Source: a virus. Taken from it: 64,000 bases of DNA. A program made the position numbers and the translations under genes. Each line of letters begins with the position of its first letter. The stretch's first letter is position 1. The notes beneath the pieces are model-generated. The model did no database searches and was not told the origin of the DNA. It saw nothing but the letters and a program-made list of their open reading frames with translations. Below are positions 6,498 to 7,475 of this stretch, piece by piece. The DNA lies in IMG/VR virus record IMGVR_UViG_3300015202_000006, positions 47 to 64,046 of that record; one strand, 5' to 3'.

Positions 6498-7475
6498 ATG
6501 ATTGACACACGCATAGGGAACCCTGAGTTCATGAAACCCTATTGGCAGGCCTCTGAGGAGACGTTCCCGGGGCTTAATGTCCCTGTCTCCAGGGGCATGC
6601 GCTACGACCGTTCCCCGGAAGAACGCCAGCTTAAGGAAGAGATCGTTCGGATTCATCAAAATATTAAGAACGTGGCCAATCCCGGATCGTATGAAATCGT
6701 CATTGGCTGTGGGGCCACGCAGCTACTCGCTGCCGCTCTCTACACGGCAAAGCGCTCCGGTATCGATGAGGTATACGCTCGCCCTCCTTATTATTTTAGA
6801 TTTCCGTTTATGGCAGACGCTGCCGGCCTAACCCTCACCGGAAGTGGTATCGGTATTCGAGCCCGTCCGCACGCCGAAATCATTACCGTCCCAAGTAATC
6901 CAGACAATGTCGTTTACGAACAGAGTGATCTCGCGTTCCCTATTTTTGATCTCTGCTACAATTGGCCCCAGTACGGGCAGGTCATTGCCCGCGATGACGA
7001 TCTGATGATTTATGGGATGTCTAAAGCCACAGGTCATTCGAGCTGTCGGATTGGTTGGGCTCTTGTAAAAGACAAGAGCGTCGCAGAACAGATGCGTTTC
7101 TACATTGAAATCGCTTCAGGCGGATCGTCCATTGAATCCTTGATTCACGCAAAAATGATTCTGAGTGATCAGTCGCACCTCTATGATGAAGGGTCCGAAA
7201 CGGACTCAGTCTTTGAATACGGGAAAGAAATCTTGAACGATCGCTGGGAACAAATCAAAGCGCTCGATGTTCCTTGTCTGGAGGTGCTGAACACATCCGG
7301 CATGTTCCTCTGGGCGACATACAAGGATGGAATGGCCAGTCTTCGTCAAGACACTCAGATCCATGGGACTGACGGTTCGCTTTGTGGAGGCAGCTCAAAA
7401 CACGTTCGCATTAGTATTGGCGGTTCGAATGAGAACTTTCGGGAAGTTATCAATTCCTTTAAAGGACTAGAATAA
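6498..7475 (+). CDS. PLP-dependent enzyme of the alliinase / tryptophan aminotransferase (TAA1/TAR) family
   Basis: [50 protein letters not shown] (PLP Lys), closely resembling plant TAA1/alliinase motifs as recalled. Confidence 0.8.
   Translation: [325 protein letters not shown]

Follow-up and report, generated by a model that had tools for sequence, protein, structure and literature searches.

A compact TAA1/alliinase-family enzyme of a phage-borne clade as a candidate auxiliary transaminase

What is a member of the enzyme family that makes the plant auxin precursor and garlic allicin doing in the genome of a phage? The question is raised by a gene at positions 6498..7475 (+ strand) of the stretch analysed here, a window of 64,000 nucleotides (positions 47 to 64,046) from IMG/VR virus record IMGVR_UViG_3300015202_000006, which is nearly all of the 64,064-base record (CheckV completeness 41%). 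The first-pass annotation, made from the sequence alone, read this gene as a plant-type pyridoxal 5'-phosphate (PLP) enzyme of the family that holds the plant tryptophan aminotransferases TAA1/TAR and alliinase, domesticated by the phage and expressed from a phage promoter of its own. Our analysis points to a compact, intact and homodimeric PLP enzyme which belongs to a phage-borne clade and would work as a stand-alone auxiliary metabolic enzyme, most likely as a transaminase, a reading that we give about an even chance.

Family, fold and active site

The open frame of the enzyme gene ends at 7475 and may begin at a TTG at 6456 or at an ATG at 6498 (+ strand). The ATG is the likely start, because relatives align from residue 1-2 and because an exact copy of a recurrent phage motif, TCCGTATAAA (6482..6491, +), ends 6 nt 5' of it. 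Read from this ATG to the stop codon, the coding sequence specifies a protein of 325 aa (P0001), whose translation contains both of the family motifs quoted in the first-pass annotation, and Pfam, structure matches and an AlphaFold2 model agree in calling it an Alliinase_C-family PLP enzyme. The Pfam profile Alliinase_C (PF04864) matched P0001 with E 8.3e-49 and 166.8 bits (cut-off 22) over profile positions 1-360 of 363, whereas Aminotran_1_2, the comparison proposed with the first-pass annotation, gave a weak match (E 4.8e-10, 39.6 bits) to the C-terminal half alone (residues 157-320). NCBIfam returned no match near its cut-offs, and the best PHROG was a family without known function (E 4e-4).

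Solved structures lead to the same family. Only three distinct sequences among them matched P0001 by sequence, namely TAA1 (PDB 3bwn, E 2.1e-34) and two garlic alliinases (~8e-21); the TAA1 alignment extends to the C-terminus, while that of alliinase barely covers the C-terminal third. The AlphaFold2 model, built on 36 relatives, has a pLDDT of 93.3 and a pTM of 0.92. In a Foldseek search with this model, ranks 1-14 were all TAA1 and alliinase chains (E ~1e-25, query TM-score (TMq) 0.86-0.90), class I aminotransferases ranked next (E ~1e-15, TMq ~0.70), and the nearest AlphaFold DB clusters were plant alliinase/TAR entries. Structural-alignment identity to TAA1 and alliinase is ~24-28%. TAA1 (PDB 3bwn, 3bwo) is thus a member of the same Pfam family and both the best sequence match among solved structures and the best fold match, although it is only ~27-28% identical to P0001 in structural alignment and longer (391 aa vs 325 aa). 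Garlic alliinase (PDB 1lk9, 2hor) shares the catalytic domain and the dimeric fold (TMq 0.89), and in the alignment its G64, Y92, K251 and R401 correspond to G7, Y36, K176 and R304; it differs in its weaker sequence match and in its N-terminal domain, which resembles epidermal growth factor (EGF-like) and is absent from P0001, where residue 3 already aligns with alliinase residue 60.

Ordinary class I/II aminotransferases, such as the 'aminotransferases' of Gordonia and Mycobacterium phages or the LL-diaminopimelate (LL-DAP) aminotransferase of giant viruses, have the fold-type I PLP architecture and the generic K/D/N/Y/R set in common with P0001, but they are much more distant: the Pfam match (E 5e-10) spans half of P0001, TMq is ~0.5-0.8 at 12-16% identity, the PHROG match stops at E 4e-4, and most or all of the residues found only in the family are missing from them. 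P0001 is therefore confirmed as a PLP enzyme of the TAA1/TAR/alliinase family (PF04864) and not an ordinary class I/II aminotransferase, and its likeness to the family is far above chance.

The residues expected of a working PLP enzyme are conserved in P0001 and in its compact relatives (short forms). Lys176 (codon 7023..7025, +), in an S-K-x-T-G-H block, is the predicted Schiff-base lysine and aligns with alliinase Lys251 and with TAA1 Lys217, the PLP lysine of that enzyme (PMC9231625); all 77 short forms, all 14 eukaryote forms and all 4 outgroup rows have it. Arg304 (7407..7409, +), invariant in 77/77 short forms, is the predicted binder of the substrate alpha-carboxylate, aligning with TAA1 Arg363 and with alliinase Arg401, to which carboxylate binding is ascribed in the part of PMC4460571 that cites Shimon et al. 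2007. Asn134 (6897-6899), Asp151 (6948-6950) and Tyr154 (6957-6959), which together mark out the stretch 6897..6959 (+), are each invariant in all 77 short and all 14 eukaryote forms, and R184 and Y36 are kept in 76 of the 77 short forms. By analogy with class I aminotransferases, we take Asn134, Asp151 and Tyr154 to hold PLP O3' and the pyridine nitrogen; N134, D151, Y154 and R184 presumably occupy the PLP-holding positions of fold-type I enzymes. The corresponding N, D, Y and R and the carboxylate arginine align in TAA1, which also shares H53, N58, W156, W187 and R249. These last five residues are common to short and eukaryote forms and were present in 0-2 of 4 outgroup aminotransferases, a small outgroup taken from one genome.

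One position sets the short forms apart. Arg101 (codon 6798..6800, +) lies two residues past the PLP-stacking aromatic, and this position is Arg or Lys in 73 of 77 short forms and Ser, Gly, Phe or His in eukaryote forms. In aspartate aminotransferases, the region after the PLP-stacking aromatic lines the side-chain pocket. The predicted dimer interface of P0001 takes in Arg101 together with Y36, residues 70-75 and residues 179-185. The homodimer prediction itself scored 0.93, while the best of three controls scored 0.00, and the mark used to judge it was reached on calibration by 21/30 proteins solved as pairs and by 0/23 solved as single chains. With all PLP and carboxylate residues kept, P0001 looks catalytically intact, and it is predicted to act as a homodimer.

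Short forms across tailed phages

The gene is carried by a phage, as the first-pass annotation held. Phage genes lie on both sides of it in the window, with a ribonucleotide reductase (RNR; 2-3376, - strand) upstream and, downstream, ThyX (9677-10357), an integrase adjoining a tRNA-Leu, a phage-encoded GroEL-type chaperonin (14087-15802), a DnaE-type DNA polymerase (21238-24837), a terminase (30684-32594) and a portal (34133-36163); SbcC is also encoded. The window is that of a tailed phage distantly related to Myxococcus phage Mx1 (169.6 kb), the one cultured phage whose terminase matched over its full length (large terminase subunit TerL, E 1e-39, 26% identity); its polymerase (PolIII-alpha) matches that of the window with E 2e-120 and 31% identity. 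The Mx1 genome is without the enzyme gene in a tblastn search of deposited phage records, and no relative was found by tblastn in any of the 50,697 records searched; megablast returned no match either. The window stretch itself recurs in glacier and ice metagenomes, in runs from ~8 studies, its habitat being glacier surface ice.

Searched exhaustively with phmmer, 1.84 billion cluster representatives yielded 766 matches at E <=1e-3 and 102 at <=1e-30, the best nearly all 290-360 aa in length, with plant TAR/alliinase proteins entering the list from ~E 1e-33 downward. The compact form accounts for more than a hundred clusters at 50% identity. Its uncultivated metagenomic members (short Alliinase_C proteins P0002-P0168) are 31-46% identical to P0001 over the full length, match it in size and in the invariant residues, and lie on phage contigs where the context can be read. 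A motif-guided scan located 22 loci on IMG/VR viral contigs, with terminase, portal and endolysin genes <=6 kb from the enzyme gene, and all eight of the longer metagenome contigs sampled look phage-like, with markers including DnaB, dUTPase, SbcC, class II RNR, GroEL, PolIII-alpha, portal, terminase, endolysin or integrase. At least two unrelated phage backbones are involved, because the TerL and portal proteins of the window show no similarity to those of two other carriers of the gene, L012 and L032.

Bacteria yielded a single copy. The motif-guided scan of 185,579 prokaryote species, with one genome per species, returned one locus, on an 8.8-kb contig of a Bdellovibrionales metagenome-assembled genome (MAG) with the cellular neighbours GGDEF, DUF4423 and GDPD. 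PF04864 also matches ordinary aminotransferases in control genomes, hence a clade profile (A1) was used as the genome probe in its place, and in 401 genomes of the phylum of this MAG it detected 1 copy, in the same MAG, and no other. Apart from this single bacterial MAG, all readable contexts of compact forms are phage contigs. Among the viral protein models of BFVD there was no member of the clade, the best match being a giant-virus LL-DAP aminotransferase (15% identity). In none of PHROG, the deposited phages and BFVD was an ordinary phage aminotransferase the best match; a best match of that kind is what the first-pass annotation had named as speaking against its family assignment.

The short forms thus make up an established phage gene family, whose carriers are nearly all tailed phages and come from several unrelated lineages. 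The gene lies inside a true phage genome and recurs in independent phage lineages, in keeping with a phage auxiliary metabolic gene (AMG).

The relation of these short forms to the eukaryotic enzymes was addressed with a tree of 175 rows and with outgroup-rooted trees. One outgroup row, OUT_L036, was a wrong open reading frame (ORF) and was left out. Plant sequences form one clade (99-100% support) within a small group that also holds protist-like sequences, the wider eukaryote clade has 98-100% support, and sequences from confirmed viral contigs are scattered over all remaining branches. P0001 falls outside the plant and eukaryote clades, nearest to P0002 and P0003 (~43-46% identity) and on its own deeper branch. 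P0160, the one sampled sequence adjoining the plant clade, comes from a eukaryote-like contig with eIF2-alpha, OTU and LRR genes. When rooted on four ordinary aminotransferases, the eukaryote clade seemed nested beside the Bdellovibrionales copy, with backbone support of 82-91%. However, in the approximately unbiased (AU) test a tree with all short forms together was better by 16.7 log-likelihood units (p-AU 0.85), and the nesting of eukaryotes inside the phage forms was dropped. The test supports nesting in neither direction, and we draw no direction of transfer from it; on these data the short, mainly phage-borne forms can stand as one clade beside that of the eukaryotes.

This placement overturns the label 'plant-type' given at first pass. 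P0001 stands outside the plant and eukaryote sequences at ~24-28% identity to TAA1 and alliinase, and in place of a domesticated plant gene we find a member of a large phage-borne radiation of short forms. That the gene was recently captured from a plant or alga, or that it reflects a chimeric assembly or contamination, would be in keeping with a literature in which the family is almost exclusive to plants and protists. Such an origin is hardly credible and already contradicted, not only by the supported position of P0001 outside the eukaryote clade but also by a GC content of the gene (0.50) that equals that of the window (0.50), by the phage motif directly upstream, by the recovery of the same stretch in runs from ~8 studies and by homologues within many other phage contigs.

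Two recent surveys describe the family as restricted to plants and protists, the origin of the plant TAA/alliinase genes is disputed (PMC5611494), and papers on TAA origin treat only plant, algal and a few outgroup sequences. In our literature search, no paper was found that links alliinase or TAA to phage AMGs, and the single paper pairing tryptophan aminotransferase with AMGs deals with fungal genes. The family and its chemistry class are already known; the phage-borne compact clade and its breadth are new. The clade adds an unreported type of AMG to phage biology and, in the dispute over where the plant genes came from, provides a sister group from outside the eukaryotes. It also offers small, probably soluble homologues for learning what sets transaminase against lyase chemistry in this family.

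Reaction type and substrate

We propose that P0001 would act on a host metabolite as a stand-alone auxiliary metabolic enzyme. An alpha-amino acid would displace Lys176 from PLP to give an external aldimine, in which Arg304 would hold the substrate carboxylate and Lys176 would take the alpha-proton. The most likely outcome, to which we give about an even chance, would be transamination to the 2-oxo acid as in TAA1, and this would reshuffle the amino groups and 2-oxo acids of the infected cell. Transamination is favoured because the similarity to TAA1 is stronger and full-length, and because the EGF-like domain of alliinases is absent.

The main rival, possible but clearly less probable, is that P0001 works as a C-S lyase by beta-elimination, in the manner of alliinase or of cysteine-conjugate/cystine lyases. 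Such an enzyme would release pyruvate, ammonia and reactive sulfur species, which might serve, for example, as sulfur for Fe-S proteins or as a thiol-reactive compound in the infected cell. The TAA1/alliinase family includes true C-S lyases, the P0001 model superposes equally well on garlic alliinase and on TAA1, and in L032, an unrelated 86-kb phage, an IscA/HesB-type Fe-S carrier gene (GGCSGF...CGC; L032:10899-11207) overlaps the 3' end of the enzyme gene. However, this Fe-S neighbour occurs at one locus only, and there is no conserved sulfur-metabolism partner among the loci. By sequence the TAA1 similarity is the stronger, P0001 begins at the catalytic domain, and nothing points to a sulfoxide substrate. 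A second apparent Fe-S connection proved doubtful: the gene directly 5' of the enzyme gene in 7 loci (L015:2601-3251 and six others) is labelled 'ferredoxin' through phrog_3704 (E 1.5e-50), but it has 3 cysteines, no Fe-S motif and no Pfam match.

The closest solved relative is TAA1, and the Joint Genome Institute (JGI) pipeline automatically labels several clade members 'L-tryptophan--pyruvate aminotransferase', hence a true tryptophan aminotransferase, forming indole-3-pyruvate and then auxin during infection, has to be considered. On glacier surface ice, such auxin would affect the algae or plants that live alongside the host. We regard this as unlikely. Neither the record nor the four near-complete phage genomes with the gene encode a YUCCA-type flavin monooxygenase or a thiamine pyrophosphate enzyme of the indole-3-pyruvate decarboxylase type; unlike TAA1, P0001 is phage-carried and without the downstream auxin enzymes. 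The clade lies outside the plant tryptophan aminotransferase group, Arg101 replaces the small or neutral residues of the plant enzymes (Thr/Ser in TAA1/TAR), and the JGI labels come from homology transfer alone.

Conserved within the clade and placed at the predicted subunit interface, Arg101 may point to an anionic substrate or co-substrate, which might be 2-oxoglutarate/glutamate or a phospho- or sulfo-amino acid. Taken together, two further-reaching proposals seem to us rather improbable: that Arg101 binds an anionic amino acid with which the phage enzymes carry out a reaction new to the family, or that phages, not plants, hold most of the sequence diversity of the family, in which case their clade would mark the non-eukaryotic side of the transfer debated for the origin of the plant auxin-biosynthesis aminotransferase.

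Several points weigh against a phage-borne transaminase as described here. In its predicted fold, P0001 is as close to alliinase, a lyase, as to TAA1 (TMq 0.89 vs 0.87-0.90), and the sequence bias towards TAA1 may only mirror a faster divergence of the Allium alliinases. No residues were found that separate transaminases from beta-lyases within the TAA1/alliinase family. The placement of Arg101 near the cofactor is one that we infer, and the dimer prediction may be partly recall, because dimers of this family are already solved. The genome-wide motif scan could miss divergent bacterial copies and, in the same run search that traced the window stretch to glacier and ice metagenomes, no RNA run contained it.

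Gene neighbourhood and the upstream motif

The enzyme gene is preceded by a receiver-domain gene (5851-6324, - strand) and then by the copy of TCCGTATAAA at 6482..6491. It is followed by an 85-aa ORF of no known family (7475..7732, +), the ATG of which shares one base with the TAA stop of the enzyme gene; this overlap suggests translational coupling of the two, and the ORF has no homologue at the other loci (tblastn). Next come a metallophosphoesterase gene (Pfam Metallophos; 7815..8465, +) and a second TCCGTATAAA copy at 8457 (+), which parts the enzyme/Metallophos unit from a unit made up of a cREC receiver (8473-8841, +), a DIOX_N-type 2-oxoglutarate dioxygenase (8829-9680, +) of the isopenicillin N synthase (IPNS)/1-aminocyclopropane-1-carboxylate (ACC) oxidase type and ThyX. 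Because the next motif copy lies at 8457, the Metallophos gene is probably in the transcription unit of the enzyme gene.

None of these neighbours is a conserved partner. All-vs-all clustering of 27 loci left the enzyme gene as the sole gene common to all, and a tblastn search with the window neighbours at 29 other loci found Metallophos at two and the dioxygenase, ThyX and the receivers at none. Of 12 full viral records with the enzyme gene, two have Metallophos and none the dioxygenase; the four records that are >=90% complete have neither. Since no neighbour gene is conserved across loci, the enzyme is likely to act alone. Metallophos was nonetheless tried as a partner: it abuts the enzyme gene in L032 (42% identical to that of the window) and lies nearby in L004, but it is missing from all four near-complete genomes and is an occasional, not an obligatory, companion. 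GroEL and SbcC recur near the enzyme gene merely as backbone synteny inside one phage group. In six other loci of this group (L021, L024-L026, L031 and L034), GroEL is 2-3 kb from the enzyme gene, the order being GroEL, small ORF(s), enzyme gene and SbcC-like gene.

The arrangement in the window could suggest that the enzyme performs one step of a local pathway with the IPNS/ACC-oxidase-type dioxygenase and ThyX, for example in thymidine/DNA hypermodification or in making a small molecule, as the three genes lie within 4 kb on one strand. PLP enzymes participate in phage thymidine hypermodification, and on the closely related contig L045 a dioxygenase gene (57% identity to that of the window) lies ~7 kb away from the local copy of the enzyme gene. 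L045 is, however, the only contig to share the dioxygenase: dioxygenase and ThyX are absent from the flanks of 29/29 other loci, and the dioxygenase from the 12 full viral records, including those that are nearly complete. The motif copy at 8457 separates the two groups of genes, no kinase or glycosylase-type modification gene adjoins the enzyme gene and, unlike the PLP-using hypermodification clusters of other phages, the gene has no conserved linkage to modification genes. We consider such a pathway very unlikely and keep to a stand-alone enzyme.

The motif before the enzyme gene is strongly over-represented. With <=1 mismatch, TCCGTATAAA has 28 sites in the window against 2.8 expected, a number reached by 0/100 shuffles, and in 13 of these the motif stops exactly 6 nt short of the ATG or GTG start of a long ORF, with TATAAA at -12..-7 from the first base of the start codon (examples of the 28 sites are 6482, 8457, 21222, 28702 and 53700 on the + strand, and 49931, 44132 and 39116 on the - strand). 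Before the enzyme gene, too, TATAAA occupies -12..-7, counted from the A of its ATG. The motif is promoter-like. Of the phage promoter proposed at first pass we retain an exact copy of this over-represented motif directly before the gene, and its action as a promoter is an inference. The enzyme gene sits among putative early genes and DNA-metabolism genes behind this phage-specific promoter-like element, and a transcript begun at the 6482-6491 motif would be leaderless or nearly so. Should TCCGTATAAA act as a -10-like promoter element, leaderless or near-leaderless mRNAs would be made from many of the phage's genes. The 6-nt spacers between the motif and start codons are mostly without likeness to a Shine-Dalgarno sequence.

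Further observations concern the phages that carry the gene. The tRNA-Leu/att region of the window was tried as a guide to the host, but its best match in the 401 Bdellovibrionota genomes was 85% identical and uninformative, and the likeness to Mx1 and a GC content of 50% give no more than hints. At L045:8626-10786 (GCA_002059165.1, MWWI01000025.1), in a phage-like contig with integrase, Rad52 and GroEL, an IS3-type transposase pair (HTH_Tnp_1 and rve) lies directly 5' of the enzyme-gene copy, which is 5'-truncated to 261 aa, and the enzyme gene appears dispensable there. In L012, a ~77-kb phage, the portal gene is broken by an intein-like insert with Hom_end_hint and LAGLIDADG domains (L012:9998-12858). 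The receivers on either side of the enzyme gene (5851-6324, -; 8473-8841, +) are stand-alone receiver-domain proteins, one of them of the cREC_REC type, and the related phage contig L004 (107 kb) has, adjoining its integrase, a gene for a PAS-HisKA-HATPase histidine kinase of 948 aa (1266-4112); both phages appear to carry pieces of two-component signalling systems.

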